Below, piece by piece: positions 4,281-49,421 of a DNA stretch of 64,000 bases. Position 1 is the first letter of the stretch, and each line of letters starts with the position of its first letter. The notes under the pieces are model-generated. The model was not told the DNA's origin and searched no databases. It saw only the letters and a program-made list of their open reading frames with translations. A program made the translations under genes and the position numbers. This DNA is from an uncultured Gaiellaceae bacterium (GTDB taxonomy: Bacteria > Actinomycetota > Thermoleophilia > Gaiellales > Gaiellaceae), in the NCBI GenBank assembly GCA_963820635.1, contig CAWGAN010000003.1, positions 583,459 to 647,458 of the forward strand, in the 5' to 3' direction.

Positions 4281-4393
4281 CTCGACCTCACGCCTACGGC
4301 GGCGTCCGGGCACGGCGGCGAAGCCTACTCCTGCGGAAAGGACGGAGGGCCGGCTTGCGCCGGCCCTCCGTCAGGTCGTATCGCGATCGTCCG

Positions 4394-7142
4394 TTACGGA
4401 CGGTCGATCGTGATCGTGGGCGACGTATGCGTCTCCCAATGCGCCGGGTTGCCGGGAGTTCCCCCCGCCTTCAGCGCCTTGACGACGATCTTGTACGAGC
4501 CGTCGGGAACGACCTTGCGATGGTCGGCCGTTCCGTTTCCGTTGTCGTGCATCCTCGTCCCGTCCCACGGGAAGGCGAGGACGTTCTCGTCTCCCTCGTA
4601 CGGGCCGCCCGCGGGCGGCTTCGTCGCGTTCCGCGGGAGGAAGTTCCGCTCGAGGTAGTTGTTGAACACCGGATGCACGGGCTTGCCATTCGCGGCGTTC
4701 ACGACCTCGAGCTCGAGCGTCCTCACCTGGTGGTTGAAGTGGAGGACGATGTTCGGGATCTCCCCGGGGTTCTGAAGCGTCCACACCTCGCCCGCCGGTG
4801 CGGCCGTGTAGATCTTCGGTGCGTTGGTGAACGGCACGCTCAGCTTGCCGACGATCGGAGCGTTGGGAAGAGCCACGATCGACTGGTAGTCGCCCTTGAA
4901 CCCTGTGTACGGAACGCTGTATGCAACCTCGTCCGTCGCCGGATCGACGAGGTAGAGGTACCCACCGTACAGACCGCCGGTCGGAATCCCGTCCTCCGAA
5001 GGATCGGCCGTGATCGTGACATTGACCGTGGCCGTGCCGCCTGCGGGAACGACCACGCTCGATGCGCTGAACACGACCTGCGTGTCGGGCAGCCAGAAGT
5101 CGGAGAGCAGCGGGCCGAATGTCTGCGTGCCCGTCGAGATCGCGACCTCGTGGTCGAGGTTGTACGTGACGGGCGAACCCGACGTGTTTCGCACCGTCAG
5201 CGTTGCACTCCCGCCTGACCCCTCGCCGAGCGAGACCTTGCCGGGAGTGATCGCGGTCGTGGCATCGATCGCGCCCGGGATGTCGAGCATGCCGGCACCT
5301 TGCCGGTGGACGATGTCGAGCAACCCAAAGGCCGGGTTACCAGACCACACCGCCGGATCAGCGCTGTTCTGCAGGATGGCGCGGATTGCGGTGGGAGCAG
5401 TGCCCGGATGGTCCTCGAGGAAGAGAGCCACACCCCCCGCCACATGCGGTGAAGCCATCGAGGTTCCGCTGATCGTGGCGTACGCGCCGTCCTCGAGCGG
5501 CCACGTCGAGCGGATCAACCCGCCCGGCGCGCCGATGTCGGGCTTCGTCGTCAGCGTCGCTTCCGTGCCGTACGAGCTGAAGCCCGAGATGAGGCCTCCC
5601 GTCGGGTTCGGTGCAGTGACGGATGCCTGCCACGTGAGCGAGACCGGTCCCGTCGCCGAGCCGGTTGTGGATGAGCTGGCCATGCTGCTGCAGGAGCATC
5701 ACGACGGGAATCCCAACCTGCGGCGTCGCCGCGACGATCGGAGTGAGAGCGCCCGGCGAATGGTTGTAGAGCACCACTGCGACGGCGCCTGCTGCCTCTG
5801 CGTTCTGCGCCTTGACCGTGAATGTGCATGCCGGTGCAGGCGCCGGTGGACCGCCACGCCGGATCAGAGCCACCGTCGCCGGTGAAGTACCCGGCGGGGA
5901 AGGGCGCGCAGCCATCCGGGAAGGTCGTGCCTCCCGGGAAGCATTCGGCGGAACGCGCCGACAGCTGCGGCAGCCGCCGACTCCTTGATCGGGAAGGTTC
6001 CGGACGTCGGTGGGTTCGGCGGATCGGGTGTGCCTTGCCCGACACGAATCCGAATGTGCGATCGGGGTGTCGTCCGGCGTGATGGTGAAGCCCGGAGCCT
6101 GGATGTGGCTGTTGTCGTACGACGCCACGCCGATCACCTTGTCACCGACGCCAGGCGCGCCCGCCGAATAGATCCCGTTCGCTCCGCTGTTGCCGATCGA
6201 CGCGACGACGACCATGCCGGCGTCGACGAGTGCATCCGATGCCGCCGCGGTCGGTGAGGCCGCCCAGTTGTTGAATGCGTCCCCGATCGACATGTTCAAG
6301 ACGTCCATGCCGTCCGCGAGAGCCAACTCCATGGCGGCGATCATGATCTCGTCCGTGGTCGAGCCGTCACAGCCGAAGACGCGGTACGCACCGAACGTGA
6401 CGCCAGGGGCGACGCCTCTGGCCTCAGCCGGAGTGTCACCGTCGGCGCCGACGATGCCTGCGACGTGCGTGCCGTGCCCGTTGCAGTCGTCCGGCACGGC
6501 GTCGGGATGCGGAACCGGCTGGAATGCGGCGCTCGTCGAATCCGCGTTGTAGTCGTCGCCGACGAGGTCGAAGCCGTCGGTGATGCGGGAGTTCGGGAAC
6601 GAGTCGCCGTTCTCCGCGCCGCCCGTGACACCGTCGCCGCCGAGATCTGGGTGATCGACGTCGATGCCGGTGTCCATGACCGCGACCTGAACGCCGGCAC
6701 CCGTCAGACCAGAGGCCTGGGCGATGTCGGCACCCGTCATCTGGATCGCGGTTGCAAGTTCCGGATCGGCTGCGGCTGTCGGCCCGAGCGTGAAGTAGCG
6801 GGCCGGATAGACGTTGGCAACGCTGCCGATTCCGGCGAGCTTGCCGACGTCCTGCGCGCCGATGCGCACCGACATGCCCTTGAAGAGCCGCTTGTAGGCG
6901 AAGCGCTCCGTGTACTTCAGCCCGACCGACTTGGCCTGATTCCGAAATGTCTGTGCCCCGTCCTCGAGCTGGACGAGGAAGATCTCCGAGGACTGGCCGC
7001 CCGTGGCGGCAGTCACCGCTGGCGGCGCGACGGCCGGCAGCTTCCTCCCGGAGCTGGCGGCGCCGACGGCTGTCGGTATCACCAGCGCTGCTGCGAGACC
7101 GAGTACGAGCGCACTCCGTCCCCGCGGAAGTCTGAATCTCAT
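4394..7142 (-). CDS. Secreted subtilisin-like serine protease (peptidase S8) with I9 propeptide and PA-like insert, apparent frameshifts
   Basis: Signal peptide MRFRLPRGRSALVLGLAAALVIPTAVGA. Triad motifs are VAVMDTGID, HGTHVAGIV and GTSMASPHVAG. GGGGAG RBS precedes ATG 7140-7142. Frame breaks lie near 6040 and 5690. Confidence 0.8.
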
Positions 7143-36330: not shown

Positions 36331-36352
36331 TGTTGAGGGTTTCTTGAGCGGC
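36331..36352 (+). promoter_or_regulatory. Pair of 11-bp-phased TTGAG-type direct repeats upstream of the 36376 gene
   Basis: TGTTGAGggtt TCTTGAGcggc. The second heptamer ends 27 nt before ATG 36376. Confidence 0.5.
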
Positions 36353-36375
36353 CCGTCGGATCGTGAGGCGATCGG

Positions 36376-37696
36376 ATGGCTCTGCGATTCCTCATCTACG
36401 CCGCGTTCGCGGCACTCACGATCGGCTTCGCTCTGTCGCCGCTCGAGGGTTCGAGCGGAAAGCGAGTCGAGCCGACGCCCGAGGGCCGAGCCCCGACGCG
36501 GGCGGAGCTCGTGCCGGCAGTAGAGGCCGCATTCGCGCTCGAGAGCTACGCGCCGAACGAGACGGCGAAGCTCGTCATCTCGAATCGAGCGCGGGGAATC
36601 CGGCTGCAGATCTTCCAGTCCGGTCCCGAGAGCATCGTCACGCGCAGCAATCTCACGATGAACGGCGTGCCCGTGACGGAGACCCGATCGATCGGGTCTA
36701 GCGGCGGACAGCGGGTCGTCCGTGTGCAAGTCGGCGCGTGGCCGAGCGGTCTCTACTTCGCCCGGCTACGCGCCGCCGACGGACGCGTGGGCTTCGCGCC
36801 GTTCGTAGTCCGCCCGCGCTGGCTGGGCGTACACCGAGTCGCCGTCGTCCTGCCGACCCTCACGTGGCAGGCATACAACCTCCGCGACGAAGACGGCGAC
36901 GGCATCGGCGACTCCTGGTACGGAGACTGGAAGGTGAAGTCCGTTCGGCTCGGTCGCCCGTACCTGAGCCGTGGCGTGCCGTACAACTACCGCCGGTACG
37001 ACCTTCCCTTCCTCCACTGGCTCGCGCGAACGGGGAAGGATGTCGACGTTCTCTCGCAGTCCGACCTCGAATCGGCGCGCAGTGCGAGCGTCCTCGCCTC
37101 GGCCTACGACCTAATCGTCTTCCCCGGGCACCACGAATACGTCACGCTCCGGGAGTACGACCTCGTCGAGGGCTATCGCGACCTTGGAGGGAACCTGATG
37201 TTCCTCTCCGCGAACAACTTCTTCTGGCGTGTCGAGAAGCGAGGCGACGTTGTCACGAAGACGAGGCTCTGGCGCGACCTCGGACGTCCGGAGGCAATGT
37301 TGATCGGCGTCCAGTACCTGGCCAACGGCAAGGCGCCGCGTCGCCCGTGGATCGTCCGGAGCTCCCGCGCCGGGAGCTGGATCCTCGCCGGCACCGGCCT
37401 ACGTGCCGGATCGAAGCTGGGCCGCGGGGGTGTGGAGATCGACCGGCGCTCACCCGCGTCGCCCGCGGGACTCGAGGTGGTGGCCGAGATCCCGGATCTC
37501 TTCGGCCCTGGGATGACCGCACAGATGACCTACTACGAGACGAAGGGCGGCGCGAAAGTCTTCGCCGCGGGTGCCTTCTACTTCACGCGGCTCGCGCACG
37601 TCGACACGACGACGTCGCGCATTCTCGACAACCTGTGGGCGACGCCTCGCACGCCGGTGACCGTCGTGCGCATCGGCACTAGCATCCAGCGGGTGA
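36376..37696 (+). CDS. N,N-dimethylformamidase large-subunit-like (DUF6605-type) protein; 3' end inferred
   Basis: N-terminal hydrophobic segment, then VAVVLPTLTWQAYNLRDEDGDGIGDSWYG...DLIVFPGHHEYVTLREYD...GGNLMFLSANNFFWRV. The frame runs into the next gene. A GTGA junction at 37693-37696 would be restored by one indel. Confidence 0.5.
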
Positions 37697-38417
37697 CGAG
37701 GTACGTCGGCGTCCTCGCTGTGACTGTTGCCGTCTTGGCGCTCGGATCCGCCGCAGAAGCCCAGACCGCCGCTTCGCCGACTCTCCTCTGCAAGCCGCCT
37801 GCGGGCGTGCAGAAGCTGCCGCGGACCGCCCGGCATGGCGTGATCGACCACCTGCTCCAGTACCCGGCCGTGAACCTTGCGACGCGTGCCCAGCGCGGAC
37901 GCGCACGCGGGATCCTCGGCCAGCTCGTGGCGGCCGCGGATCGAGAGCGCTGGCGAAACCCCGCCGCCGCCGGGCGTGCCGGCTACGACATGGGGACGCG
38001 ACCGCGCAAGGCAGGCGACCGGGCCGTGTACTTCTTCCACGCGGAGCGAGACCAGGAGCGCAGGCGGGGCTCGATCTTCGACGCCGCGCGCCCGAAGGCG
38101 CTCATCTACGCGAACGCTCCCGGCCGGCCGCTGATCCTCGTCGGAGCAATGTGGAGCACGCGCGACGGCGAGCTCGGGCCGACACCTGCCGGGCCGATCC
38201 TCCGCTGGCACTCCCACATCGTCTGCAAGAGCGGGGCGAAGCGCGGCCTGAAGCCACCGCCGAGCGGGACCTGCCCAGCGGGCTCGCGGCTCACCCAGGG
38301 TACGAGCGAGATGCTCCACGTCTGGTTCACCGGGACCTGCGCAGCGCGTTCGCCATCAGCGCTCCGAGGCCCGAGCTGTGCGCGGTCGAGCTCCTGCCGC
38401 GCGACTCGTGCGGCTGA
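37693..38417 (+). CDS. Secreted protein of unknown function, apparent frameshift near 38330
   Basis: VTRYVGVLAVTVAVLALGSAAEAQ signal peptide, then a Cys-containing domain (LLCKPP...HSHIVCKSG...GTCPAGS). I recognise no family. Confidence 0.4.
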
Positions 38418-38421
38418 TCGG

Positions 38422-41400
38422 CTATCCGCCCAGATAGCGCTCGCGCTCGACCTCGGTCAGCTCGCGACGCGTCCCTGCGAGCCGGCGACCGGCGAGCTCG
38501 ACGAGCTCGTCGACATCTCCACAGGGTTCGCATCGATAGGTGCGGACAGTTCCATCGGCACCACCGGTCACGATGATCCGCCCGGACGGGTCGAACGCCA
38601 CGGCGGTCACGGTTCCCTCGTGGCCCCGGAGCCGGAGGATCAACTCGCCGTCGGTGGCGTCCCAGAGGCTCGCGCGAAGCGCGGCGGTGACGAGCCAATG
38701 ACCGTCCGGGCTGAAGGCGGCGTCTCTCACCGCGGTGTTGTGCTGGAGAGCGCGAGCGAGCTCGTTTGCCGGAAGGCTCCAGATGCGGGCGACGTGGTCG
38801 AGGCTCGTCGTCGCGAGGACGGTGCCGAATGGCGAGAACGCCACGGACGTGACTCGGTCGCGGTGCCCCGTCAGCGTCTCGGCCTCACCGTCCTGCCGGA
38901 CGATCACGACCCGCCCGCGCATCGTCGCGCTGCTGCCGTCGGGGCCGGTCACCCGGCGAGGCTTCCGCCTCGGGGCGCTCTCCGTGCTCACCTCGTCTCC
39001 GGTCGCGGGGTCGAGAACGAGCTTCCTACCCTCGCTCGTCCAGACGTTCACGCGATCGTCCACCGCCAGAGCCGTCACCGGCGCGCCGACCCGAGCGAGC
39101 TCCGTCAGCTCCGGCTGGAACACGCCGTCCCAGATCCTGATCGACTCGTCCTGGCTCGCGGTCACGATCGGGCTGCCCGCCCCTCCGCTGAACGCGGCCG
39201 ACTCGACCCAGCCGCGATGTCCCGAGAGCACGAACAGCTCGTCGCCGCTCTCCGCGTGCGACACGCGCGCGGTGTTGTCCTTCCCGGTGGTGACGACGTG
39301 CTCGCCGTCGGCGCTGAACGACACGTTCTTGAGAGCGTTCGTGTGGCCGGTGAGCGCAGAGGCCAGCCCCCAGTCGGCCGTGCGCCACACGCGGCCGGTC
39401 CCGTCCGTGCTCGCGCTCGCGACGAACTTCCCGTCGGGACTGAACGCGACCCCTACCGCGTTGCCGGCGTGCTCCGTCAAGACGTGCACTCTCCGCCCGC
39501 TCTGGCCCGACCACACGCGCACCGTGTCGTCGACGCCTCCTGTCAGCACGCGTCGGTTGTCGGGCGAGATCGCGGCGGACTGCGCGCCGGGGTGTGGGTA
39601 CGTGTAGAGGGTCCTCCCGGTCGAGACCTCGACGAGGCGCACGCCACCGGGCTGGACGACTGCCACCACCGTCGCATCGGGCGAGATCGCGGCCGCCACC
39701 GCGTCGCGCGCACCGGCGAGAGTGGAGACGGCGCCGCCCGCCGTGACGACGCGCACGAGACCGTCGCTGCCCGTGATCGCGGAGGTCCCGTCGTCGGCGA
39801 ACGCCGCCCCGCGCGCCCGAGCGCCCGTCGAGAACGTGTCGACGACAGCCCGGTCGACCGGCGTCACGATCATCACCTCACCTTCCTCCGTGACCGCGAC
39901 GACCTCGTGTCCGCGCACGGTGGCAGCGAGCACCGGCGCGCCGAGCTCCACGACGGCTCGCACGCGTGACTGGAGCAGCGCGTGCCGCAGCGCCTGCTCG
40001 GACGACTCGCTCGGGACGACGCGAGCCGCCTCGCGTGCGAGGACGAGGCTGAGCTCAGGGTCGCGATCGAGCTCGGCGTCGGCGCTCGCGACGAGCTCGT
40101 TCGCCTTCGCCTCCCGCGCCTGCTCGCGCGCCTCCGTCCGCTGGGAGAGCGCGTAGACCGTCACGGCACCCATCACCGCGAGCAGGACGGCGCCCACGAC
40201 GATGATCGCGAGCAGTTGCCGATGTCGTCGGTCGGACGCCTCCTGCTGCCGTTCGAGCTCCCGCTCGGCCTCGTGACTCGCGCGCCAGGCGACCACAGGC
40301 TCCGCGAGGACGTCGTGGAAGATCTCGTAGCGGACGGCGCCGCCCTCGTCGAGTGACCGGAGGATCCTTCGATCGGCGAGGATCGCGAGTACCGGCCGAA
40401 GCTCGTCGAGCGGGACGCGCCCGAAGTCGGCGAGATCGGACAGCTCGTGGGCGATCTTCGTGCCCGACGGCGTGACGAGATGGTCGAAGAGCCGTGCGGC
40501 GATGTCCTTCTGATTGTGCGACAAGGCGTCCATGGCGCTCTCGAAGTGCTCCTCGACGATGCGCTGCGCGCCGCCCAGGCTTTCGAACGTGGACAGACGA
40601 AGGATGCTCGAGCCCGCTTTCCGCTCCTCTTCCCACAGGCGCTGCATCACGAGCTGGAGATACGGCGCCTCGATGCGCGCGGTGTCCTCGACGCCTTCGA
40701 TCGAGCCGCGTCCCGCGAGCGCGGTCTCGATCCGACCGGCGCCCACCTCGTCGAGCACGCGCTCGACGAGCTCGGGCTCGATCTCGACTCGCACCCCGGC
40801 CAGCTCGCCGTAGCGATCGACAGGCCCCACGATCGCGGCGCGCGCGGCCTGACGGTCGAGCCGATCGAGTCGTAGTGTGTTCGCGAAGAGTCCCGGCACG
40901 CGCCCGGTGAAGCGATCGAGCTTCGCCAGGGAATCCTCACGCAGCGAGACGAGCACGTTGACACGCGACTGCGCGGCGAGGATCGACGGAAGAGCCTCCG
41001 CGAAAGACCCCGGACCACTGTCGTCGGCGTGGTACAGGAAGTACTCCTCTGCCTGGTCGAGAACGAGGTAGACGTCGCGCTCCGACTGCGCGTTTCGAAG
41101 CGCCGCGACGGCGGAGCCGTTCGACGTGTCACCCGTGGCTTCCGCGACCGCCTCTGCCACACCGACGCTCGGGTCGTCGCTCCAGCTCGAGAAGACGACG
41201 ACCAGCGGCCGCTCGGGCAGAGCGCGGAGAGAGCGCGCCACTGCAGCGCCGAGCAGCGACGATTTGCCGACCCCACTCGGCCCGTAGAGGACGGTGAGCC
41301 GCGATGCGATGAGGTTCGCGACGACGATCTCGGTCTCGCGCTCGCGCCCGAAGAAGAGGAGTGCGTCGAGCTCGGAATCCTCGAAGGCGGTGAGCCCCTT

Positions 41401-41433
41401 GTACGGCGACTCGGGTATCGGGCTCTCGTTCAC
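38422..41433 (-). CDS. STAND-type P-loop NTPase / single TM helix / WD40-repeat protein (1003 aa, intact)
   Basis: GTG 41431-41433 overlaps the TGA of the upstream gene (GTGA). Walker A is LYGPSGVGKSSLL (41260-41283) and Walker B is VYLVLDQAEEYF. The hydrophobic helix LLAIIVVGAVLLAVMGAVTVYAL lies at 40150-40215. About 530 aa of WD40 units follow (LTEHAGNAVGVAFSPDGKFVASASTDGTGRVW, LTGHTNALKNVSFSADGEHVVTTGKDNTARV, LTGHRDRVTSVAFSPFGTVLATTSLDHVARIW, LRGHEGTVTAVAFDPSGRIIVTGGADGTVRTY). Confidence 0.85.
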   Translation of the reverse strand: MNESPIPESPYKGLTAFEDSELDALLFFGRERETEIVVANLIASRLTVLYGPSGVGKSSLLGAAVARSLRALPERPLVVVFSSWSDDPSVGVAEAVAEATGDTSNGSAVAALRNAQSERDVYLVLDQAEEYFLYHADDSGPGSFAEALPSILAAQSRVNVLVSLREDSLAKLDRFTGRVPGLFANTLRLDRLDRQAARAAIVGPVDRYGELAGVRVEIEPELVERVLDEVGAGRIETALAGRGSIEGVEDTARIEAPYLQLVMQRLWEEERKAGSSILRLSTFESLGGAQRIVEEHFESAMDALSHNQKDIAARLFDHLVTPSGTKIAHELSDLADFGRVPLDELRPVLAILADRRILRSLDEGGAVRYEIFHDVLAEPVVAWRASHEAERELERQQEASDRRHRQLLAIIVVGAVLLAVMGAVTVYALSQRTEAREQAREAKANELVASADAELDRDPELSLVLAREAARVVPSESSEQALRHALLQSRVRAVVELGAPVLAATVRGHEVVAVTEEGEVMIVTPVDRAVVDTFSTGARARGAAFADDGTSAITGSDGLVRVVTAGGAVSTLAGARDAVAAAISPDATVVAVVQPGGVRLVEVSTGRTLYTYPHPGAQSAAISPDNRRVLTGGVDDTVRVWSGQSGRRVHVLTEHAGNAVGVAFSPDGKFVASASTDGTGRVWRTADWGLASALTGHTNALKNVSFSADGEHVVTTGKDNTARVSHAESGDELFVLSGHRGWVESAAFSGGAGSPIVTASQDESIRIWDGVFQPELTELARVGAPVTALAVDDRVNVWTSEGRKLVLDPATGDEVSTESAPRRKPRRVTGPDGSSATMRGRVVIVRQDGEAETLTGHRDRVTSVAFSPFGTVLATTSLDHVARIWSLPANELARALQHNTAVRDAAFSPDGHWLVTAALRASLWDATDGELILRLRGHEGTVTAVAFDPSGRIIVTGGADGTVRTYRCEPCGDVDELVELAGRRLAGTRRELTEVERERYLGG

Positions 41434-43043
41434 GCGGCCTCGAGCCGTCGCTCGAGCAGCTCGACGTACGACAACGGATCCACGTCGAGCGCGGCGACGT
41501 CGAACCGGCGCCAGAACGCCTGCGCGAGCGGGCTCGGCGAGCGCTGCACCGCCCACGAGCGGTACGCGACGGGTCGCTCGCCCCAGATGCGGTTGAGGAT
41601 GAGTCGCAGGTTCCAGTCGGCCATCTCGTAGCCGAGGAAGAGGAAGTGGCTGCGGCGAAGCCTGGCCGCGAGCGCGACCGGCACGACGGCAGTCAGCTCG
41701 GAGCGGCCGAGGTAGTCGATGTAGTCGTCCTCGGTGATGACGAAGCTCTCCCACTCGCGCTCGGGCAGCGGATCGACGGCGCCGTGGAGCTTCAGCAGGA
41801 TCGTGCGCCGGTCGAGGTCGAGCTCCGTCGCGTACGTGTTCGGAACGTCGATCGGGCGCGGCGGCTCTCCCGGCGGTCGGTGCCAGAAGCGCCCGCGGTG
41901 AGTCCCGGTTGCGACGTAGGCCACGATGTCGAGCTCCTCGCCGGCCTCTTCGAAGGCGCGCTCGAGGGCGAGGTCGTAGTTCGTGGTCACGATGAGCTGG
42001 TGGGGCGCACCGTGCTCTCGTAGGAGCGTCGGAAGCCGGGCGAGGAACCGCTGGAGCGGTCCCGGTTCCACCGCCGCCTCGAACCGGGTGTGAAGTTCGT
42101 CGTAGAGCGGGCCTGATCCCTGCATCGTCGCGACGTACTGGGAGACGCGCGCGAGGTCGACCGGGCGATCGTCCGGAACTGCAAATGCCCGGGCGAGATG
42201 CTCCGCGAGATCGCCCGCCCCGTCGAGACCGATGACGGGCACCACCCGGCCCGAGAGAAGAGCCTTGACGATCTCCCCCTCCTCGTCGGCGGGCGCCGGC
42301 CCGCCGGAGACAGTGAGCCCCGACTCGTGGCGAAGGATCTCCGCCTGGAGCCGCTTGAGCTCCGGGCCTGGCTCGATCCCGAGCTCGTCGAGGAAGCGGG
42401 CGCGAGCGTCGTGGTACACCTCGAGAGCTTCTGCTTGCCGACCCGCGCGATACAGCGCGAGCATGAGCTGCCTGCGAAACGTCTCACGAAGCGGGTGGTC
42501 GCCGGCGAGTCCCTCGAGCTCGCCGATCACGTCGCCGTGCCGCCCGAGCTCGAGCTCGGCGTCGATCCGCTCGCCGATCACGACGAGTCGCAGCTCCTCG
42601 AGCCGTCGGATCTCCGCCTGTGCGAAGTCGTCGAACGCGAACTCCACGAGCGCGGATCCACGCCACAGCGCGAGCGCGGACTGCAGCAGCGCGCTCCGCT
42701 CCTCTGCAGGAAGCCGCCGCGCGTCGGCGAGCGCCTGCTCGAACCGACGCGCATCGATCTGGTCAGCTCCGGCGTTGAGCACGTAGCCGGGTGCGCGGGT
42801 GTCGAGGATGTCGGTTCCCAGCGCCCGGCGCAGGCGTCCGACGGCGTTCTGGAGCGACGCAGTGGCCGTCTTCGGCGCCTCCTCGCCCCAGAGCGAGTCG
42901 ATGAGCCGATCGGTCGGGACGACCCTGCCGGCCTCGAGAACGAGGATGGCGAGGAGCGCGCGCTGCTTGGGGCCTCCGAGCGCGACATGCCCGGTCTCGT
43001 CTGAGACCTCGAGCGGGCCGAGTATCCGGAACTCGAGCGTCAC
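41430..43043 (-). CDS. SARP-type DNA-binding regulator (OmpR-like wHTH + BTAD) fused to a SIR2_2 (SIR2-like NADase/deacetylase) domain (537 aa, intact)
   Basis: VTLEFRILGPLEVSDETGHVALGGPKQRALLAILVLEAGRVVPTDRLIDSLWG... (wHTH). ALALWRGSALVEF...RRQLMLALYRAGRQAEALEVYHDARARFLDELGIEPGPELKRLQ (BTAD). SIR2_2 motifs are QLIVTTNYDLALERAF (TTNYD at 41973-41987), ILLKLHGAVD, FVITEDDYIDYL and HFLFLGYEMADWNLRLIL. An alternative GTG lies at 43097. Confidence 0.85.
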   Translation of the reverse strand: MTLEFRILGPLEVSDETGHVALGGPKQRALLAILVLEAGRVVPTDRLIDSLWGEEAPKTATASLQNAVGRLRRALGTDILDTRAPGYVLNAGADQIDARRFEQALADARRLPAEERSALLQSALALWRGSALVEFAFDDFAQAEIRRLEELRLVVIGERIDAELELGRHGDVIGELEGLAGDHPLRETFRRQLMLALYRAGRQAEALEVYHDARARFLDELGIEPGPELKRLQAEILRHESGLTVSGGPAPADEEGEIVKALLSGRVVPVIGLDGAGDLAEHLARAFAVPDDRPVDLARVSQYVATMQGSGPLYDELHTRFEAAVEPGPLQRFLARLPTLLREHGAPHQLIVTTNYDLALERAFEEAGEELDIVAYVATGTHRGRFWHRPPGEPPRPIDVPNTYATELDLDRRTILLKLHGAVDPLPEREWESFVITEDDYIDYLGRSELTAVVPVALAARLRRSHFLFLGYEMADWNLRLILNRIWGERPVAYRSWAVQRSPSPLAQAFWRRFDVAALDVDPLSYVELLERRLEAA

Positions 43044-43106
43044 GGGCGACCTTAGAACGCCGCGCAGGCTGTGTCCAGCATCCGGGCCACAGATCACTCG
43101 AATGCG

Positions 43107-43128
43107 CTCAAGACCCGCTCAAAGAGTG
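43107..43128 (-). promoter_or_regulatory. Pair of 11-bp-phased TTGAG-type repeats facing the SARP-SIR2 operon
   Basis: Read on the minus strand: CTTTGAGcggg TCTTGAG. The proximal heptamer lies 63 nt upstream of GTG 43043. Confidence 0.5.
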
Positions 43129-43172
43129 GTTAGCGAGCTGTTGGCCACCCGTTGCCGGCCGGTTGGAGACCC
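43129..43172 (+). promoter_or_regulatory. Four 11-bp-phased GTTAGC-type direct repeats facing the deacetylase gene
   Basis: GTTAGCGagct GTTGGCCaccc GTTGCCGgccg GTTGGAGaccc. They are in continuous 11-bp register with the two TTGAG-type units at 43107-43128. ATG 43190 lies 21 nt after the last heptamer. Confidence 0.55.
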
Positions 43173-43189
43173 CTCCGACCGTGCCGGGC

Positions 43190-43987
43190 ATGACTACCTC
43201 ATTCGCTCGTCTCGTCCGGCGGCTCGGACTCGCAGCCGCTATTGCGCTCGCCGCGGCGGGTGCCTCGACGGCCGACTCCACTCGCGGGCTGGATTCCGCC
43301 GCGGCCGCAGTCACCCCGACGACGCCTGTTCCGATCCTGATGTACCACGTGATCGCCGATCCTCCGCCGGGAGCCCCGTACCCGGAGCTCTTCGTCAGCG
43401 AGGCTGACTTCGCAGACCAGATGCGGTGGCTCGCGCGCCACGGATATCAGGCGGTTACGCAGCGCGATCTGTGGCACCACTGGCACCGCGGCGCCGCTCT
43501 CCCGCCGCGGCCGATCGTGCTCTCGTTCGACGACGGCTATCGCAGTGTTGCCGACGCGGCGTTCCCGCACATGCAACGGCGCTCCTGGCCCGGAGTCCTG
43601 AACCTGACCGTCAAGAACCTTCGCGTCTCGGGCGGACTGAGCGAGTCGAGAGTGCGGAGGCTGATCTCGGCCGGGTGGGAGCTCGCCTCCCACACGCTCA
43701 CGCATCCTGACCTCACGACTCTCAGTGGGCGTGCACTCGCGCGTGAAGTGAGCCGCTCGAGGATCGAGCTCCGATCGCGCTTCGGCGTCCCCGTCGACTT
43801 CTTCTGCTACCCGGCGGGACGGTACGACTCGAGCGTCATCCGGGCGGTTCGTCGCGCTGGGTATCGCGGCGCGACGACGACGGTGGAGGGCCTCGCACGG
43901 CCCGGCAAGCCGTACGAGCTTCGGCGCGTCCGGGTGAACGGAAGCGACGGCGTGGACGAGCTCGCCGCCAAGCTGCGTACGAGTTGA
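43190..43987 (+). CDS. Secreted polysaccharide deacetylase (NodB-homology/CE4) family protein
   Basis: MTTSFARLVRRLGLAAAIALAAAGAS signal peptide. Motifs are PILMYHVI, IVLSFDDGYRSV and LASHTLTHPDL. The ORF track starts at an upstream TTG (43163). Confidence 0.8.
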   Translation: MTTSFARLVRRLGLAAAIALAAAGASTADSTRGLDSAAAAVTPTTPVPILMYHVIADPPPGAPYPELFVSEADFADQMRWLARHGYQAVTQRDLWHHWHRGAALPPRPIVLSFDDGYRSVADAAFPHMQRRSWPGVLNLTVKNLRVSGGLSESRVRRLISAGWELASHTLTHPDLTTLSGRALAREVSRSRIELRSRFGVPVDFFCYPAGRYDSSVIRAVRRAGYRGATTTVEGLARPGKPYELRRVRVNGSDGVDELAAKLRTS

Positions 43988-44003
43988 GCAGGCCTTGAGC
44001 GAC
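43982..44003 (+). promoter_or_regulatory. Pair of 11-bp-phased TTGAG-type repeats upstream of a small ORF
   Basis: AGTTGAGcagg CCTTGAGcgac. The first heptamer contains the deacetylase TGA. ATGs follow at 44007 and 44022. Confidence 0.45.
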
Positions 44004-44006
44004 GTA

Positions 44007-44204
44007 ATGAACGCTGCGGCCATGTTCGAGCAGAACACCACGCCGAAGCTCATCGAAGAGATCGATCGCTATCTCGCGGCGATCGATCTCTTTCGCGCCG
44101 AAGGCTGCGAGCCGGCGTGGCAGCCTGAGCTCGAGCACCGCACTCCCTCGGCATCGTCCACGCCGGCGCCCGATCGCTTGCCTTCGGACATCCGGCTCCA
44201 CTGA
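44007..44204 (+). CDS. Small hypothetical protein (about 60-65 aa), start uncertain
   Basis: MNAAAMFEQNTTPKLIEEIDRYLAAIDLFRAEGCEPAWQPELEH... I see no recognisable domain. Codon usage is only weakly gene-like. Confidence 0.3.
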   Translation: MNAAAMFEQNTTPKLIEEIDRYLAAIDLFRAEGCEPAWQPELEHRTPSASSTPAPDRLPSDIRLH

Positions 44205-44323
44205 AGGTGACGTTCTAGGCGATCGCGACGATCGTCGGCGCACGAGACGCGTTGCCCACGGACAACGAGGCCGTCTTCGCCCAGACCAGTCGACAGGTGG
44301 GCTCGACGTAGACCACTCCGGCG

Positions 44324-44367
44324 GTTAGCCAGCTGTTAGCCGCTCGTGGTCGGGCGGTTAGGGGTCG
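44324..44367 (+). promoter_or_regulatory. Four 11-bp-phased GTTAGC-type direct repeats upstream of the 37-codon ORF
   Basis: GTTAGCCagct GTTAGCCgctc GTGGTCGggcg GTTAGGGgtcg. The last heptamer ends exactly 50 nt before ATG 44414. Confidence 0.55.
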
Positions 44368-44413
44368 GATCGAGCGTGACCGGCGCACACACGAATCCCG
44401 AGAGGAGGGAATC

Positions 44414-44527
44414 ATGCGCCAGGTCACTTCACTGCACCGCACGCTCGTCGTGCTCGCAGTCGGTCTGCTCGCGCTCGCGGCTCCGCTGCTCGCTTCGGCG
44501 GGCGGCCCAGGCCCCGGCACCGGGTAG
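44414..44527 (+). CDS. 37-codon ORF that is essentially only a signal peptide plus a Gly/Pro tail
   Basis: MRQVTSLHRTLVVLAVGLLALAAPLLASAGGPGPGTG. A strong RBS (GAGAGGAGGG) lies 5 nt before the ATG, and a terminator hairpin follows directly. It is absent from the ORF track because it is too short. Confidence 0.5.
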   Translation: MRQVTSLHRTLVVLAVGLLALAAPLLASAGGPGPGTG

Positions 44528-44547
44528 TCGTGTCCGAATCGACGACA

Positions 44548-44575
44548 CCAAGGCCCGCGTCCGAGCGGGCCTTGG
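44548..44575. terminator. Bidirectional hairpin between the 37-codon ORF and the convergent SARP-cyclase gene
   Basis: CCAAGGCCCGC-gtccga-GCGGGCCTTGG (11-bp perfect stem) followed by TCTTTCC. Confidence 0.7.
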
Positions 44576-44587
44576 TCTTTCCGTGCC

Positions 44588-47500
44588 CTACACCAATGCC
44601 ACGTCGTCCAGAAGAGCGCGCAGTTGGCGGAGTCCAACGACGTTACCCTTGGCCTCGTACAGCTCGAGTGCGTCGACGTAGGCAGCGCGCGCGTCTTCCG
44701 TTCGCCCTGCACGTGTGAGGATCTCACCCAGATCGCGGCACGCTTTCGCATGCTGATTGAGCGCATCGGTCGTCTCCGCAAGCTCGACGGCGGCGGCCGC
44801 CAGCTCCATGGCATCCTCGAGACGGTCAAGATGCGCCAGGACCTTTGCCCGAACGGGCATCCAGAGCACACGGGCGTCAACGTCATCGGCGGCCGAGTGC
44901 CGCTCTGCGACATCGGTCCAGGCCGAAGCTTCGTCGAAGCGCGCCAGCCGGTAGAGCGCCTCGGCACGGTCGCCCGCGCGGCTTGCGAGATGGCTGAACC
45001 CCCGAGTCTGCTCTAGCTCGCCACAGAGCCAGCGGAGCGTGGCTTCCGCCGCGATGACATCGCCCGCGAGGAGCTCGACATCTCCGAGGATCGCCGCGCT
45101 GAACGTCGCCGCCGAGGCCCGCTGTCCCAGCTCATCGAACGTCGCCCTGGCCGACGAGACGAGCGAGCGAGCTCGGTCGAAATCGCCCGTCTGCGCAACG
45201 AGACCGCCCAGGTACACCTCGATATTGGCTTGTCCGTATCGGTTCAGTGCCTCCGTCTCAATCAGCGCGTCACAGCGATCGATGGCATCCGCCACGCGTG
45301 TGGACCCGTAGTACAGCGCCTTCGCGATCTCGCCGGTCGCTGTCGAAGTCGGCCAGGTCGAACGCATGTAGTGGGTGAGTGCGCGCTCCGCCGCCGTCAG
45401 TCGCACGTCGTGATGGCCGCGATGCCCTCCCTCGATCCAACCAGCCAGAAGCAGCGCTCGGCCAACTGACCTGTCGTCACCTGCAGCCTCGAACACCGGG
45501 ATCGCGTCCGCCGTGATGGAGAGCAGGTCGTCGCCGGTGTCCGACCGAAGATGGATCCCCACATACGCGCCCTCCATCCGCGCATGGAGCTCGGTCGTCC
45601 TGTCGCCCACGGCGGTCGCGAGCCCGATGGCGCGCTCCACCGACGCGAGCGATGCCTCGAGATCTCCTCCTGCCCGCAGAGCGATCGCAAGCTCGGTCAG
45701 GAGCTCAGCCTCGAGCGCCGAAGGCAACGGGATCGCGGTCGCACGGCGAAGCAGGCCGATCGCCGCCGGTACGTCGCCTCGCTTCGCTGCACGGACACCG
45801 GCTTCACCCAGGCGGCGGCCCGCGTCGTCCGCGAGGCGCTCGGTCCTTCGATCCGATTCGCCAAGCTCGCTCCGCAGCCGGTACGCCCGCTCGAGGTGGT
45901 GGCCGACGAACTCGTCGAGCTCGGTGAGCTCCGCGTGGGCCTCCTCCAGCCTGTCCGCGTAGCGCTCGTGGAGGTCGGCGCGGAGCCGTTTTGGTGCCGC
46001 GCGATAGACCGCCTCTTGCACGAGGACGTGACGGAAGCTGAACGCCGTCTCGCCGCGTGGCCGTACAAACCCGCGATCGGAAAGAGTGCGCAGGTGAGAG
46101 TCGGCGGTCGGAGTCGCCTCCGGCTCGAGGAGCGATGTCAGGTCCTCGGCACTGAAGTCCTTGCCGATCACGGCGCCGCGTTCGAGCACCGCGCGCTCGC
46201 CGGGGCCGAGGCGGTCGAGACGTGCAGCGAGCAGCGCCTGGATCGTCTCCGGCAGCACACGCTCGGCGAGGCCACCTTCCAGCGCGAGGGCGAGGAGCTG
46301 TTCGAGGAAGAGGGGGTTTCCCTCCGCGGTCTCGGCGATGCGTACGCGCTGGTCCGACTCGAGCGTCGTCCCACCGAGGCCCTCGAGCAGCGCGTCCGTC
46401 TCGGCGGCGGAGAGCGTGTCGAGGAGAATCCTGTCCGCATTCGCGCGTCCCTCGAGGAACGTCGGCCGCTCCTCGAGGAGCTCCTCACGCGCGAGACACA
46501 CCACTGAGATCGCACCCGTCCCCTTGTCCACGAGGTGCTCGAGGAGCTCGAGGAACGTCGGCTCAGCCCAATGGACATCGTCGAAGACGAGGACGAGCGG
46601 CCGCTCGCGCGCGCTCGCTTCGCAGAACCGGCGGAAGAGCCAGGCGAGCTCGGGCGCGGGCGGCGGCGTCTCGGCGTCGAGCGAGGCGAGAACGGCGCTG
46701 CGCTCCTCGCTCGCTCCCGCGCGGTCGAGAACTTCGCGCAGCGGCCAGTACGTGATGCCCTCGCCGTACGAGAGACATCGGCCCCAGAGGGTCGTCACGC
46801 CCTTCGCGCGCCGGGTCAGCTCGGCGGCGAGGCGCGACTTCCCGACGCCGGGCGAGCCGACGACGACCGCGACGCGCATGACTGCACCGTCTCTGGAGCG
46901 CTTGAGCGTCCGTCGAAGCGCCGCGAGCTCGCGCTTGCGGCCGACGAGGCGCGCATCCTGCCGCTGCTGGAAGGCCGGCGCGATCGGGCTCAGCTCGAGT
47001 AGCCGATACGCGAGCACCGGCTCGCGCTTGCCCTTGATCGCGACCTCGCCCAGCGGATCCAGCACGGCGACGTGGTCGATCAGCCGCGCGGCGAGCGCGC
47101 CCACGACGATCTCGTTCGCGGCGGCGGCGGCTTCGAGCTTCGCGGCGATCCCGACCGCCTCGCCCGTGACGAGGCGCTGCCGAGCCTCGGTGGGGGTCGC
47201 GACGACCTCGCCCGCCTCGATCCCGATGCGGATCTCGAGCCCTACCGCGTGCTGTCGCGCGAGCTGCTCGTTGAGCGCCGCGATGCCGACGCGAATGTCG
47301 AGCGCCGCGCGGGCCGCGCGCAGCGCGTCGTCCTCGTGCGAGACGGGGATTCCGAACGCAGCCATGACCGCGTCGCCCGCGTACTTCTCCACCGAGCCGT
47401 CATGGCGCGCGATCGCCGCCGAAACCGTCTCGAAGTAGCTCCGCAGTACGGTGCCGAGCGCCTCCGGATCGAGCGCCTCCGCCAGAGCCATCGACTCGAC

Positions 47501-48340
47501 CACGTCGACGAAGAGGATCGTGACGAGCCGGCGGAACTGCATCGCCGGCCGCGCGAGCGGAGCCTCCTCTAGGAGCAGCGACTCGTCCTGGCGCAGGATC
47601 GCGGCCTCGAGCTCGCGCAGCTCGGGCCCGGGGTCGATCCCGAGCTCCTCGACGAGTGTCTCGCGTGCGGTGCGGTAGGCGGCGAGCGCGTCCGCCTGGC
47701 GACCCGAGCGGTAGAGCGCGAGCATGAGCTGCGCGCGAGGCCGCTCGCGAAGAGGCTGAGCGGCGACAAGCGCCTCGAGCTCGGAGACGAGCTCGGCGTG
47801 GCGGCCGAGCGCGAGGTCGGCTTCGATCCGCTCCTCGACGGCGACCGTGCGAAGCTCCTCGAGCCGGGCGATCTCGGTCTGCGCGAACGGCTCGTACAGG
47901 AAATCGGCGAGCGCGGGACCGCGCCAGAGCGCGAGCGCCTCACGGAGCGCACCTTCGGCCGCAGCAGGGTCCCCGCCCTCGAGAGCCGCCCGTCCGTCCT
48001 GCGCGAGACCGGCGAAACGGTGGACGTCGACGCGCTCAGGGGCGAGCTCGAGCTCATAGCCGGGCGCGCGTGCGGCGATCACGGGGCCGAGCGCCTTGCG
48101 GAGCTGCGAGACGTAGACCTGGACGGCGTGCGCGGCGGTCTCGGGTGGGTCGCCGGGCCATAGCGCCTCCACGAGCTTGTCGACGGAGACGACACGGCCC
48201 GGCTCGATTGCGAGCACGGCGAGGAGCGCGCGCGGCTTCGGCCCTCCGAGTGTGGCGGGGACGCCGTCCCGCTCGGCCTCGATAGGGCCGAGGAGCCGTA
48301 CGTCGAGCTCTGGGGTGCCTGCCCCGCTCGCTCCGTCCAT
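44588..48340 (-). CDS. SARP (wHTH+BTAD) / class III adenylate-guanylate cyclase / AAA-STAND ATPase / TPR protein (1250 aa, intact)
   Basis: LDVRLLGPIEAERDGVPATLGGPKPRALLAVLAIEPGRVVSVDKLVEALWPG (wHTH). RAQLMLALYRSGRQADALAAYRTARETLVEELGIDPGPELRELE (BTAD). VTILFVDVVESMALAE...GDAVMAAFGIP (cyclase). VVVGSPGVGKSRLAAEL and LVLVFDDVHWAE (Walker A/B). A long TPR-like C-terminus follows. Confidence 0.88.
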   Translation of the reverse strand: MDGASGAGTPELDVRLLGPIEAERDGVPATLGGPKPRALLAVLAIEPGRVVSVDKLVEALWPGDPPETAAHAVQVYVSQLRKALGPVIAARAPGYELELAPERVDVHRFAGLAQDGRAALEGGDPAAAEGALREALALWRGPALADFLYEPFAQTEIARLEELRTVAVEERIEADLALGRHAELVSELEALVAAQPLRERPRAQLMLALYRSGRQADALAAYRTARETLVEELGIDPGPELRELEAAILRQDESLLLEEAPLARPAMQFRRLVTILFVDVVESMALAEALDPEALGTVLRSYFETVSAAIARHDGSVEKYAGDAVMAAFGIPVSHEDDALRAARAALDIRVGIAALNEQLARQHAVGLEIRIGIEAGEVVATPTEARQRLVTGEAVGIAAKLEAAAAANEIVVGALAARLIDHVAVLDPLGEVAIKGKREPVLAYRLLELSPIAPAFQQRQDARLVGRKRELAALRRTLKRSRDGAVMRVAVVVGSPGVGKSRLAAELTRRAKGVTTLWGRCLSYGEGITYWPLREVLDRAGASEERSAVLASLDAETPPPAPELAWLFRRFCEASARERPLVLVFDDVHWAEPTFLELLEHLVDKGTGAISVVCLAREELLEERPTFLEGRANADRILLDTLSAAETDALLEGLGGTTLESDQRVRIAETAEGNPLFLEQLLALALEGGLAERVLPETIQALLAARLDRLGPGERAVLERGAVIGKDFSAEDLTSLLEPEATPTADSHLRTLSDRGFVRPRGETAFSFRHVLVQEAVYRAAPKRLRADLHERYADRLEEAHAELTELDEFVGHHLERAYRLRSELGESDRRTERLADDAGRRLGEAGVRAAKRGDVPAAIGLLRRATAIPLPSALEAELLTELAIALRAGGDLEASLASVERAIGLATAVGDRTTELHARMEGAYVGIHLRSDTGDDLLSITADAIPVFEAAGDDRSVGRALLLAGWIEGGHRGHHDVRLTAAERALTHYMRSTWPTSTATGEIAKALYYGSTRVADAIDRCDALIETEALNRYGQANIEVYLGGLVAQTGDFDRARSLVSSARATFDELGQRASAATFSAAILGDVELLAGDVIAAEATLRWLCGELEQTRGFSHLASRAGDRAEALYRLARFDEASAWTDVAERHSAADDVDARVLWMPVRAKVLAHLDRLEDAMELAAAAVELAETTDALNQHAKACRDLGEILTRAGRTEDARAAYVDALELYEAKGNVVGLRQLRALLDDVALV

Positions 48341-48405: not shown

Positions 48406-48427
48406 TCTTGAGCCGTTCTTGAGAGGG
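48406..48427 (+). promoter_or_regulatory. Pair of identical 11-bp-phased TCTTGAG repeats upstream of the 127-aa ORF
   Basis: TCTTGAGccgt TCTTGAGaggg. The second heptamer ends exactly 50 nt before ATG 48474. Weaker TTCTCA/TGTCTG units lie upstream at about 48373-48405. Confidence 0.55.
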
Positions 48428-48473
48428 CGCGCGCACGCTGTGGCCATGCGAAACCCCAACCACGGAGGTCCTC

Positions 48474-48857
48474 ATGACTGCCCTCGTCGTCACCGTCTCG
48501 CCCGCGAACGGAATGTCCGACAAGGAGGGACGCATCGGGATCTTCCCAGGAGGGGCGACGACGACGATGTACCCGGCGAGCACGCCGTTCTGGGTGGGCT
48601 ACGGCTTTGCAGCCGACTCGGTCGGAGGCGTCGATCTCGAGGTCGACACGACGCGGTTCGAGCTCGACGTCGACGGGGAGCCCGTCTCGATGCTCACCGA
48701 CGTGCACACGGAGTCCGGGCTTCCCGTGCGCAAGACGAACATCGCCGAGTTTCCCGACGGCCTTCCCGCCGGCTGGCACGACTTCACCGGGCGCTGGTAC
48801 GACGGCGGGCGCCTGATCCTCTCGAGCCGCGCGGCGATCCAGTTCGTCGAGCCTTGA
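48474..48857 (+). CDS. Hypothetical 127-aa protein
   Basis: Intact ORF with a GGAGG RBS: MTALVVTVSPANGMSDKEGRIGIFPGGATTTMYPASTPFWVGYGF... I see no signal peptide and no recognised family. Confidence 0.5.
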   Translation: MTALVVTVSPANGMSDKEGRIGIFPGGATTTMYPASTPFWVGYGFAADSVGGVDLEVDTTRFELDVDGEPVSMLTDVHTESGLPVRKTNIAEFPDGLPAGWHDFTGRWYDGGRLILSSRAAIQFVEP

Positions 48858-48895
48858 GCGTTTCTTGAGCGTCGTCTCGCACGGTTCTCAACACC
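48852..48895 (+). promoter_or_regulatory. Four 11-bp-phased units (two TTGAG-type, two TCTC-type) upstream of the 159-aa ORF
   Basis: CCTTGAGcgtt TCTTGAGcgtc GTCTCGCacgg TTCTCAAcacc. The last heptamer ends exactly 50 nt before ATG 48942. The first unit contains the upstream TGA. Confidence 0.5.
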
Positions 48896-48941: not shown

Positions 48942-49421
48942 ATGAACGGACTGAAGATGCGGCGCCCGAGCCCGGCACTCGTCGTTGCGACCGTCGCGCT
49001 CTTCGTCGCACTCGGTGGAACCGCAGGTGCCGTCGTGACGCAGGCGGTGCCGCTCGCGAAGCGGGCGCTCGTTGCCGAAAACGCGAAGAAGCTCGGCGGC
49101 CAGACCGCTGCACAGGTCTCGGCGCAGGCGGTCAAGGCTGCGCAGGCCGCGGCGGCGGCTCCGGGGCCTGCCAGCACGGCGGCCGGCCTCGTGAGCACGA
49201 AGACGCAGTCGGCGTCCATCGCCGCCGACGACGCGCAGCTGTACAAGGTCAGTTGCGACGCGGGTCAGAAGGTGATCGGCGGAGGATTCTCGTCCGACGG
49301 GCCGGTTCAGGAGTTCGTCGAGTCCCGTCCCGAGAACGACACGACGTGGTCGATCGGGCTCATCAACTTCGACTCGGGCGCAGGGCACAGCGTCACGCTG
49401 TACGCCGTCTGCCTCAAGTAG
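48942..49421 (+). CDS. Membrane-anchored or secreted 159-aa protein, unknown function
   Basis: N-terminal helix PALVVATVALFVALGGTAGAVV, an Ala-rich linker, and a C-terminal two-Cys domain (YKVSCDAGQKVIGGGFSSDG...VTLYAVCLK). Confidence 0.5.
   Translation: MNGLKMRRPSPALVVATVALFVALGGTAGAVVTQAVPLAKRALVAENAKKLGGQTAAQVSAQAVKAAQAAAAAPGPASTAAGLVSTKTQSASIAADDAQLYKVSCDAGQKVIGGGFSSDGPVQEFVESRPENDTTWSIGLINFDSGAGHSVTLYAVCLK

Follow-up and report, generated by a model that had tools for sequence, protein, structure and literature searches.

Which protein recognizes two sets of phased repeats that stand in front of a polysaccharide deacetylase gene and of a 37-codon open reading frame (ORF) in an uncultured Gaiellaceae bacterium, and which genes are controlled in this way? 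The stretch of DNA analysed here, in the following named the window, comprises 64,000 nucleotides (contig CAWGAN010000003.1, positions 583,459 to 647,458 of the forward strand) with a GC content of ~69%. Between uvrB and rpsA/polA it contains a locus with two genes for SARP-family regulators and two classes of direct repeats, namely arrays with the core GTTRGC and pairs of TTGAG units. The best explanation of this locus as a whole, which we hold with moderate confidence, is that the GTTRGC arrays are SARP-family operators, that the SIR2-fused SARP (SARP-SIR2) is their binder, and that the modules are cross-wired. It is highly probable that one of the two SARPs of the locus binds the arrays. 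We infer binding, activation, stoichiometry and the pairing of each SARP with a repeat class from sequence, conservation and co-distribution.

Sequence and promoter geometry of the arrays

A reading of the sequence alone had claimed two arrays of 4 x 11 bp, each pointing at a downstream ATG. Direct reading confirmed both. Array A (43129-43172, plus strand) consists of the units GTTAGCGAGCT, GTTGGCCACCC, GTTGCCGGCCG and GTTGGAGACCC and lies at ~-61 to -18 relative to its target, ATG 43190 of the deacetylase gene. Array B (44324-44367, plus strand) consists of GTTAGCCAGCT, GTTAGCCGCTC, GTGGTCGGGCG and GTTAGGGGTCG and is directed at ATG 44414 of the 37-codon ORF, termed orf37 below. All units start GTT(A/G)G-like and follow each other in exact 11-bp phase; both arrays thus show the ~7-bp direct repeats at 11-bp spacing that characterize SARP operators. 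The array alignment shows GTT and position 5 to be conserved in all units and the spacers to vary in units 1 and 2.

Arrays of this kind are not expected by chance. Counting both strands, the window contains the pentamer GTTAG six times, four of them inside arrays A and B. The pattern GTTRGC-N5-GTTRGC is matched exclusively by the two arrays, the number expected from 100 dinucleotide shuffles being 0.00. For a four-unit score, matches to GTTRGC were counted at offsets 0, 11, 22 and 33 (maximum 24). The two arrays reached 22/24 and 21/24, and the remaining window did not exceed 17, register-shifted copies aside. Among 200 first-order Markov simulations of 64 kb, the top score was 19 (once) and the usual maximum was 17; the arrays thus scored above all simulations. 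Shuffles, simulations and the conservation described below rule out chance or a low-complexity repeat.

In both cases, the last heptamer is followed after 8 bp by a -10-like hexamer on the plus strand: GACCGT (43177-43182) follows GTTGGAG of array A, and GAGCGT (44372-44377) follows GTTAGGG of array B. Both hexamers fit NANNNT. GA(C/G)CGT is invariant in all arrays of type A, and CGAGCGTGA is invariant across the aligned arrays of type B. The hexamers are candidate -10 elements on account of their conservation and of the leaderless ATGs located 6-7 nt downstream. The deacetylase ATG 43190, which is supported as start codon by orthologue N-termini and by the conserved distance between -10 and ATG, begins 7 nt after GACCGT. 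Among the metagenome matches listed, arrays with leaderless targets have a hexamer-to-start distance of 6 nt (19 cases) or 7 nt (16 cases). A fixed distance between -10 and start is typical of leaderless mRNAs, and its constancy therefore fixes the transcription start without experimental mapping. The deacetylase mRNA is probably leaderless with its start at 43190; with this +1, the units of array A span -61/-51, -50/-40, -39/-29 and -28/-18. For the promoter of array B, a start near 44384 is predicted, followed by a leader of ~30 nt with a GGAGG Shine-Dalgarno sequence.

According to a rule for SARP operators, the direct repeats lie 11 or 22 bp apart, and the 3' repeat is 8 bp away from the -10 (PMC10936776). 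In the window and in related loci, the 3'-most repeat indeed lies 8 bp upstream of the -10. The arrangement of heptamer, 8 bp and NANNNT holds in the 17 type-A arrays of the genome loci as well as in the related loci L012, L013, L201, L202, L205 and L206, the hexamer being GACTAT in L012 and GACCAT in L013. This count covers only sets that were not selected for spacing; the metagenome pattern imposed the spacing and was excluded. In the initiation complex of AfsR, the region from -40 to -19 is covered by two protomers, which act in place of the -35 (PMC10936776). Units 3 and 4, at ~-39 to -18, likewise overlap or replace the -35, and a sigma-70-like promoter was sought in 42900-44700 and not found. 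The sequence-only reading had named a position far from any -35 region as a refutation of its claim; in silico, the arrays do not lie in such a position. Two other interpretations were rejected. An ECF-sigma promoter (GTT... CGT) does not match, because the GTT-to-CGT spacings are not 16-18 nt and because four phased units with variable spacers are activator-like; an ECF sigma gene is present in one locus only (L201). A structured RNA or leader element does not match either, as the arrays lie 5' of the predicted transcription starts and match no Rfam family at E <= 1.

The arrays share with the 'afs box' of AfsR and with the classical SARP operators (ActII-ORF4, DnrI, RedD) the heptamer direct repeats, the 11-bp spacing and the location on one face of the DNA. 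As in AfsR-type operators, where each repeat is bound by one protomer, the 3' repeat is 8 bp away from a weak -10, and the -35 is overlapped or replaced (PMC10936776). The differences concern sequence, number, targets and host. The heptamer is GTTRGCS and not the AfsR repeat (-35 element TTCAGC). The AfsR box has two units, whereas the arrays have three to four, with the best consensus at the distal end. Classical SARP targets are antibiotic clusters; here, they are leaderless genes that code for secreted cell-wall enzymes and small peptides. The host belongs to the Thermoleophilia (Gaiellaceae) and not to Streptomyces.

In the proposed mechanism, a SARP-family activator with an OmpR-type winged helix would bind the GTTRGC arrays head-to-tail on one face of the DNA, one protomer per unit. 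The promoter-proximal units (~-39 to -18) would occupy the position of the AfsR 'afs box' and stand in for the missing -35, and a SARP bound there would, in a case of sigma adaptation, contact RNA polymerase as well as sigma region 4. The distal units (~-61 to -40) hold the best GTTRGC consensus and are probably high-affinity nucleation sites for the cooperative filling of the weaker proximal units. As judged from operator architecture, the mechanism is that of a standard SARP/OmpR-type direct-repeat operator and not a new one. It differs from known cases in a new heptamer, in the number of three to four units with the best consensus at the distal end, in the leaderless targets, in the regulon of secreted cell-wall enzymes and peptides, and in the probable partner, a SIR2-fused SARP coupled to an nSTAND-WD40 protein.

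Conservation in genomes and metagenomes

If the arrays are operators, they should be found upstream of orthologous genes, and this claim of the sequence-only reading was borne out. In a scan of species-representative genomes, 26 of the 27 best loci belonged to Gaiellaceae, Gaiellales or Thermoleophilia. A four-unit GTTRGC array stands 5' of the deacetylase orthologue or its paralogues in each of the 14 loci with the SARP module (L001-L010, L021, L023, L024 and L026), and all 14 carry both SARP genes. The second array was found 5' of the orf37 orthologue in 10/10 of these loci covering that region. In 17 aligned type-A arrays from the window and the related genome loci, conservation begins sharply at unit 1; the flank 5' of it is unconserved where the neighbouring gene differs (L002, L005b, L006b, L023b and all type-B arrays). 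The GTTRGC hexamer of units 1 and 2 is kept while their spacers vary, as is characteristic of recognition by a protein. Conservation extends over the whole of units 3 and 4, which would be expected if RNA polymerase also constrains them. Within 848 kb of fetched loci, high-scoring arrays were restricted to Gaiellales loci, where all of them lie on the gene strand and 5' of start codons; none was present in 53 unrelated loci.

For JGI metagenomes, the exact pattern of units 2-4 plus -10 was used, which matched at least 120 contigs. Once 17 chance matches, which lie on other contigs of mostly lower GC content, had been removed together with 14 duplicates and three incomplete cases, at least ~93 non-redundant arrays from soil metagenomes were left, all of them directly 5' of start codons. 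Their targets comprise at least ~50 genes of the orf37 family, 13 M23 peptidase-like, 13 DMFA2_C-like and six deacetylase genes, three other leaderless genes (one of an alpha/beta-hydrolase) and eight other small ORFs. Judged by the positions of the arrays, the predicted regulon is broader than the sequence-only reading had assumed and includes M23 peptidases, DMFA2_C-like proteins and other small peptides in other lineages. The deacetylase itself has thousands of relatives in soil metagenomes.

Probable assignment of the repeat classes to the two SARPs

Two SARP genes flank arrays A and B, and a candidate regulator is thus encoded in cis. SARP-SIR2 (41430-43046, minus strand, GTG start at 43046) combines the Pfam domains Trans_reg_C, BTAD and SIR2_2. 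The second protein, SARP-cyclase (44588-48340, minus strand, 1250 aa), combines a SARP part with guanylate-cyclase-like, AAA_16 and TPR domains (Pfam). For both SARP domains, AfsR and EmbR are the best PDB matches. Apart from the two SARPs, the window and 27 related loci (L001-L027) contain no OmpR-type DNA-binding domain. The recognition helices are conserved within each family and distinct between them: SARP-SIR2 has SLQN..., SARP-cyclase has HAVQVYVSQLRK. At the positions of the AfsR base contacts T88/R92, SARP-SIR2 has N combined with R, Q, H or S, whereas SARP-cyclase has V with Q. Both repeat classes share the T at unit position 2, which aligns with the T contacted by R92 of AfsR.

The second class, TTGAG-N6-TTGAG, occurs five times in the window, compared with 0.03 expected. 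All five are two-unit pairs, and each lies 8 bp from a NANNNT hexamer, in accordance with the same 8-bp rule. Four are on the plus strand: 36333-36354, 5' of a DMFA2_C-like gene (ATG 36376); 43984-44005, 5' of a 60-aa ORF (44022-44204, plus strand); 48408-48429, divergent from the SARP-cyclase gene and 5' of a 127-aa ORF (48474-48857, plus strand); and 48854-48875, 5' of a 159-aa ORF (48942-49421, plus strand). Several pairs precede leaderless or near-leaderless starts, such as ATG 44022 of the 60-aa ORF. The fifth pair (43101-43122, minus strand) is 8 bp away from TGATCT, faces the SARP-SIR2 gene and reads as CTCAA units on the plus strand. The sequence-only reading had joined this pair and array A to a continuous series of six units (43107-43172). 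The six units are present in the sequence; the two CTCAA units, however, are the reverse complement of the TTGAG pair that serves the divergent SARP-SIR2 promoter, and the series is not a conserved unit. Related loci have 11, 12 or 13 bp between pair and array, and the pair is missing from many lineages. Given the opposite orientation, the varying distance and the frequent absence of the pair, the six-unit register is incidental, and a continuous array was rejected.

The distribution of the two classes follows that of the two regulators. Of 43 tblastn hits to 5' ends of SARP-SIR2 genes, 38 were scored with a divergent array of three to four units, and among the five others at least L002 and L004 show slightly degenerate arrays by eye; in only 20 of the 43 hits does a TTGAG pair additionally point at the SARP-SIR2 gene. 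A divergent TTGAG pair within 260 nt was found for 13 of 14 tblastn hits to 5' ends of SARP-cyclase genes, the pair of L111 being ~500 nt away, and a GTTRGC array was present at none of the 14. Seven loci were selected through the SARP-SIR2 protein: L201, L202, L203, L205, L206, L208 and L209. The first five belong to a second clade (~52% identical, recognition helix SLQNFVAQLRK) and were inspected with flanks of +/-10 kb each. GTTAGC units divergent from SARP-SIR2 are present in all five; in four of them, three units face a leaderless DMFA2_C gene, and L203 has retained a two-unit remnant. Within +/-10 kb, a TTGAG pair or a SARP-cyclase gene was found in none of the five. The two loci from the clade of the window (L208, L209) have two to three arrays, four to five TTGAG pairs and a SARP-cyclase gene. 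From species to species, orthologous promoters keep their repeat class.

This co-distribution and the differing recognition helices assign GTTRGC to SARP-SIR2 and TTGAG to SARP-cyclase, a pairing that we consider likely, albeit with some reserve. The distribution thus agrees with the proposal of the sequence-only reading that two repeat classes and two SARPs form two cognate pairs.

Several observations weigh against this assignment. Only the seven loci named above were chosen by the regulator protein alone; all other genome and metagenome loci were chosen via array-bearing genes or via the array itself. Metagenome contigs are short, and the absence of SARP-cyclase within 10 kb does not equal its absence from the genome. 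The heptamers of the two classes are related in register (TTGAGCG and GTTAGCG), with GTGAGC intermediates in L012 and L013. In these two loci, three-unit arrays (L012 of DATLDK01: 5885-5917, GTTAGCC GTGAGCG GTTAGAG; L013 of CAWJYW01: 5849-5881, GTGAGCC GTGAGTG GTTAGCG) stand 5' of a deacetylase homologue without a SARP gene within 6 kb; the homologue has ~60% identity, the same leaderless geometry and a purF/MOSC housekeeping context. The regulator can accordingly act in trans, and adjacency is not obligatory. Where adjacency does exist, it points the other way for one group of targets: small-peptide genes with type-B arrays always adjoin the SARP-cyclase gene, and adjacency alone would favour SARP-cyclase.

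This last point leads to the alternative that survives best, though we rate it as unlikely: the arrays are SARP operators bound by the SARP-cyclase-ATPase-TPR protein, which activates the neighbouring peptide gene, in the manner of receptor/pheromone pairs, and the secreted enzymes, and SARP-SIR2 binds the TTGAG pairs. The small-peptide genes with type-B arrays are convergent with the SARP-cyclase gene down to 32-40% identity, and the TTGAG pair at the SARP-SIR2 promoter in the clade of the window could then represent autoregulation. The architecture of SARP-cyclase has a known counterpart. The PimR/SanG/PolR family of SARP-LAL regulators combines a SARP with a guanylate-cyclase-like domain and an ATPase; PimR binds heptamers arranged as three plus two with 4-nt spacers by cooperative monomer binding, and known PimR-type SARPs have operators of three or more repeats (PMC5930380). 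The 1250-aa protein shows this architecture (Trans_reg_C, BTAD, Guanylate_cyc, AAA_16 and C-terminal TPR), and Pfam detects no GerE/LuxR domain in it. The repeats associated with it are, however, pairs of TTGAGCG and not the PimR heptamer CGGCAAG; the main PimR operator, unlike the arrays of the window, does not overlap a -35. Moreover, it is the two-unit TTGAG class that tracks the PimR-like protein of the window, whereas the multi-unit class tracks the SIR2-fused SARP. Three distributions contradict the exchange of partners: the five protein-selected clade-2 loci have GTTAGC units and neither SARP-cyclase nor TTGAG pair within +/-10 kb, only about half of the SARP-SIR2 promoters have a TTGAG pair, and the divergent regions of SARP-cyclase genes hold a TTGAG pair but never an array.

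A second alternative, to which we assign a low probability, assumes that both SARPs bind both classes with different affinity, and that the classes are strong and weak, or two-unit and four-unit, variants of one operator family. The common core KTKAGCS in the same register, with T2, A4, G5 and C6 shared, is in agreement with it, as are the intermediates of L012 and L013 and the fact that DMFA2_C and M23 targets swap class between lineages. On the other hand, the class is stable at orthologous promoters across species, the helices, which are conserved per family, differ at both positions of the AfsR base contacts, and TTGAG pairs do not occur in loci that carry SARP-SIR2 only.

It is very improbable that the arrays are PHO-box-like sites of an OmpR/PhoB-family regulator encoded elsewhere, such as PhoP or a cell-envelope stress regulator, with the SARPs as bystanders or competitors; AfsR and PhoP are an example of such competitors in Streptomyces. 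Like the arrays, PHO boxes of PhoB/PhoP have 11-nt units (7 conserved plus 4 variable nt) in variable number and overlap or replace the -35, and the Streptomyces consensus GTTCACC likewise begins with GTT and resembles GTTAGCC (PMC4415409); the arrays of L012 and L013, which have no SARP nearby, would also fit. However, no response-regulator gene turned up when the window and L001-L027 were searched by tblastn with OmpR and PhoB, and a local regulator of this family was rejected as binder. The arrays are tightly clustered with SARP-SIR2 genes in two deep clades and occur nowhere else in the 64-kb window, and the targets (deacetylase, M23, DMFA2_C-like and peptide genes) do not include phosphate-regulon genes.

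Proposed wiring of the locus and a possible peptide loop

With SARP-SIR2, encoded divergently from the deacetylase gene, as the most likely binder of the arrays, the TTGAG pairs would be the operator of the PimR-like SARP-cyclase-ATPase-TPR protein. The arrays would switch on the leaderless gene of the secreted polysaccharide/peptidoglycan deacetylase (43190-43987, plus strand; signal peptide, Pfam Polysacc_deac_1) and the small secreted peptide gene orf37 (44414-44527, plus strand), which encodes a conserved precursor of 36-37 aa. Elsewhere in Gaiellaceae, the same type of array would drive M23 peptidases, DMFA2_C-like proteins and other small peptides. In the clade of the window, a TTGAG pair would drive the operon of SARP-SIR2 and its partner, a nSTAND1 NTPase with WD40 repeats (nSTAND-WD40), and GTTRGC arrays would drive the deacetylase gene and the peptide gene that adjoins SARP-cyclase; the other TTGAG pairs would drive the 60-aa, 127-aa and 159-aa ORFs and the DMFA2_C-like gene. 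The proposed wiring of two regulator/operator pairs is thus visible in the positions of the elements, with a TTGAG pair at SARP-SIR2 and a GTTRGC array at the peptide gene beside SARP-cyclase. The DMFA2_C-like and M23 genes have GTTRGC arrays in some lineages and TTGAG pairs in others; this swapping of class within enzyme families suggests a single functional regulon under two coupled regulators.

The nSTAND-WD40 gene (38422-41433, minus strand; Pfam) has its GTG start at 41433, according to a check of the start, and overlaps the stop codon of SARP-SIR2 in GTGA (41430-41433); on the basis of this overlap, the two genes are predicted to be translationally coupled. The gene pair is kept in two deep clades and has thousands of members in soil metagenomes. 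An annotation of SARP-SIR2, nSTAND-WD40 and SARP-cyclase as anti-phage defence was rejected, as PADLOC reported similarity only at the level of domains (ThsA SIR2, Pycsar cyclase) and no system match. In several lineages without a TTGAG pair (L092, L104, L121, L172, L195 and others), SARP-SIR2 appears leaderless behind a -10 of the type TAGAAC/TACAAC. There, the -10 is ~22-30 nt away from the distal edge of the array, which places the array at ~-41, 5' of the SARP-SIR2 promoter; a bidirectional use of the array or an autoregulation is possible in these lineages.

Further observations concern the neighbourhood. The DMFA2_C-like ORF (36376-39969, plus strand) runs over 1197 codons without a stop and overlaps the convergent nSTAND-WD40 gene on the opposite strand by ~1.5 kb; its length could reflect a frameshift, a lost stop codon or a spurious extension at the 3' end. 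In L201 (14992) and L203 (14996), three-unit arrays stand 5' of an M23 gene, downstream of the nSTAND-WD40 gene; their downstream geometry is a different one, without a GA(C/G)CGT hexamer at +8. Near the clade-2 SARP-SIR2 gene of L206, positions 3640-6771 encode a 1043-aa protein with Guanylate_cyc and AAA_16 domains and without a SARP DNA-binding domain, which may be a relative of SARP-cyclase lacking this domain. A GC-rich hairpin, read from the sequence, is located between the convergent genes of orf37 and SARP-cyclase (44548-44575). It is probably a bidirectional terminator; equivalent hairpins lie 3' of orf37 in related loci.

The orf37 product consists of a signal peptide with a conserved AxA cleavage motif and, behind it, a variable tail of 7-9 aa rich in Gly and Pro, with examples such as GGPGPGTG, DGGPTAG and GDGGPKPG. 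The ORF is kept in nine genome loci (including L001, L003, L005, L006, L009, L021 and L024) and behind at least ~46-50 non-redundant metagenome arrays, and in every case it converges on the 3' end of the SARP-cyclase-TPR gene. In the divergent lineages L150, L179 and L189, its position is taken by Gly-rich peptides of 11-15 aa without a signal sequence. The arrangement of orf37 and SARP-cyclase looks like a pheromone/receptor pair. Peptides and TPR receptors form such pairs in RRNPP-type systems, for example PlcR-PapR and Rap-Phr. The likeness, a resemblance only, consists of a small precursor gene with signal peptide and short variable tail that adjoins the gene of a TPR-containing regulator. 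Unlike RRNPP proteins with their HTH-TPR fold, SARP-cyclase combines a STAND ATPase and a cyclase-like domain with the DNA-binding domain of a SARP; the genes are convergent, and the sensing of a peptide is hypothetical.

A speculative extension, which we judge to be doubtful, is a quorum-type positive-feedback circuit in which a peptide and two regulators built from SARP and NLR-like factors control cell-wall remodelling or lytic enzymes. The PimR-like SARP-cyclase may sense the Gly/Pro-rich orf37 peptide, or its 11-15 aa equivalents in divergent lineages, and may activate the TTGAG promoters including that of SARP-SIR2. SARP-SIR2, coupled to its NLR-like partner nSTAND-WD40, may in turn activate the GTTRGC arrays, and these may drive the peptide gene itself and the secreted peptidoglycan-active enzymes (deacetylase, M23 endopeptidase and DMFA2_C-like protein).

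To our knowledge, SARP regulators are known almost entirely from antibiotic clusters of Streptomyces, and other targets are largely unknown. According to a 2026 preprint, many AfsR-like regulators have unknown targets. A literature search for a Gaiella SARP, or for a system of BTAD, SIR2, STAND and WD40, found nothing relevant. The present analysis provides a testable cis-code and a predicted regulon for two very abundant, uncharacterised SARP families of uncultured soil Gaiellaceae, with exact operator sequences, promoter geometry and predicted leaderless starts now defined. The two diverged SARP domains and their putative operators offer a natural pair for studies of specificity. Under this assignment, SARP-type activation would be connected with secreted peptidoglycan-modifying enzymes and small secreted peptides instead of with antibiotics. 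The peptide circuit, if true, would constitute an undescribed signalling loop in one of the most abundant families of soil actinobacteria.

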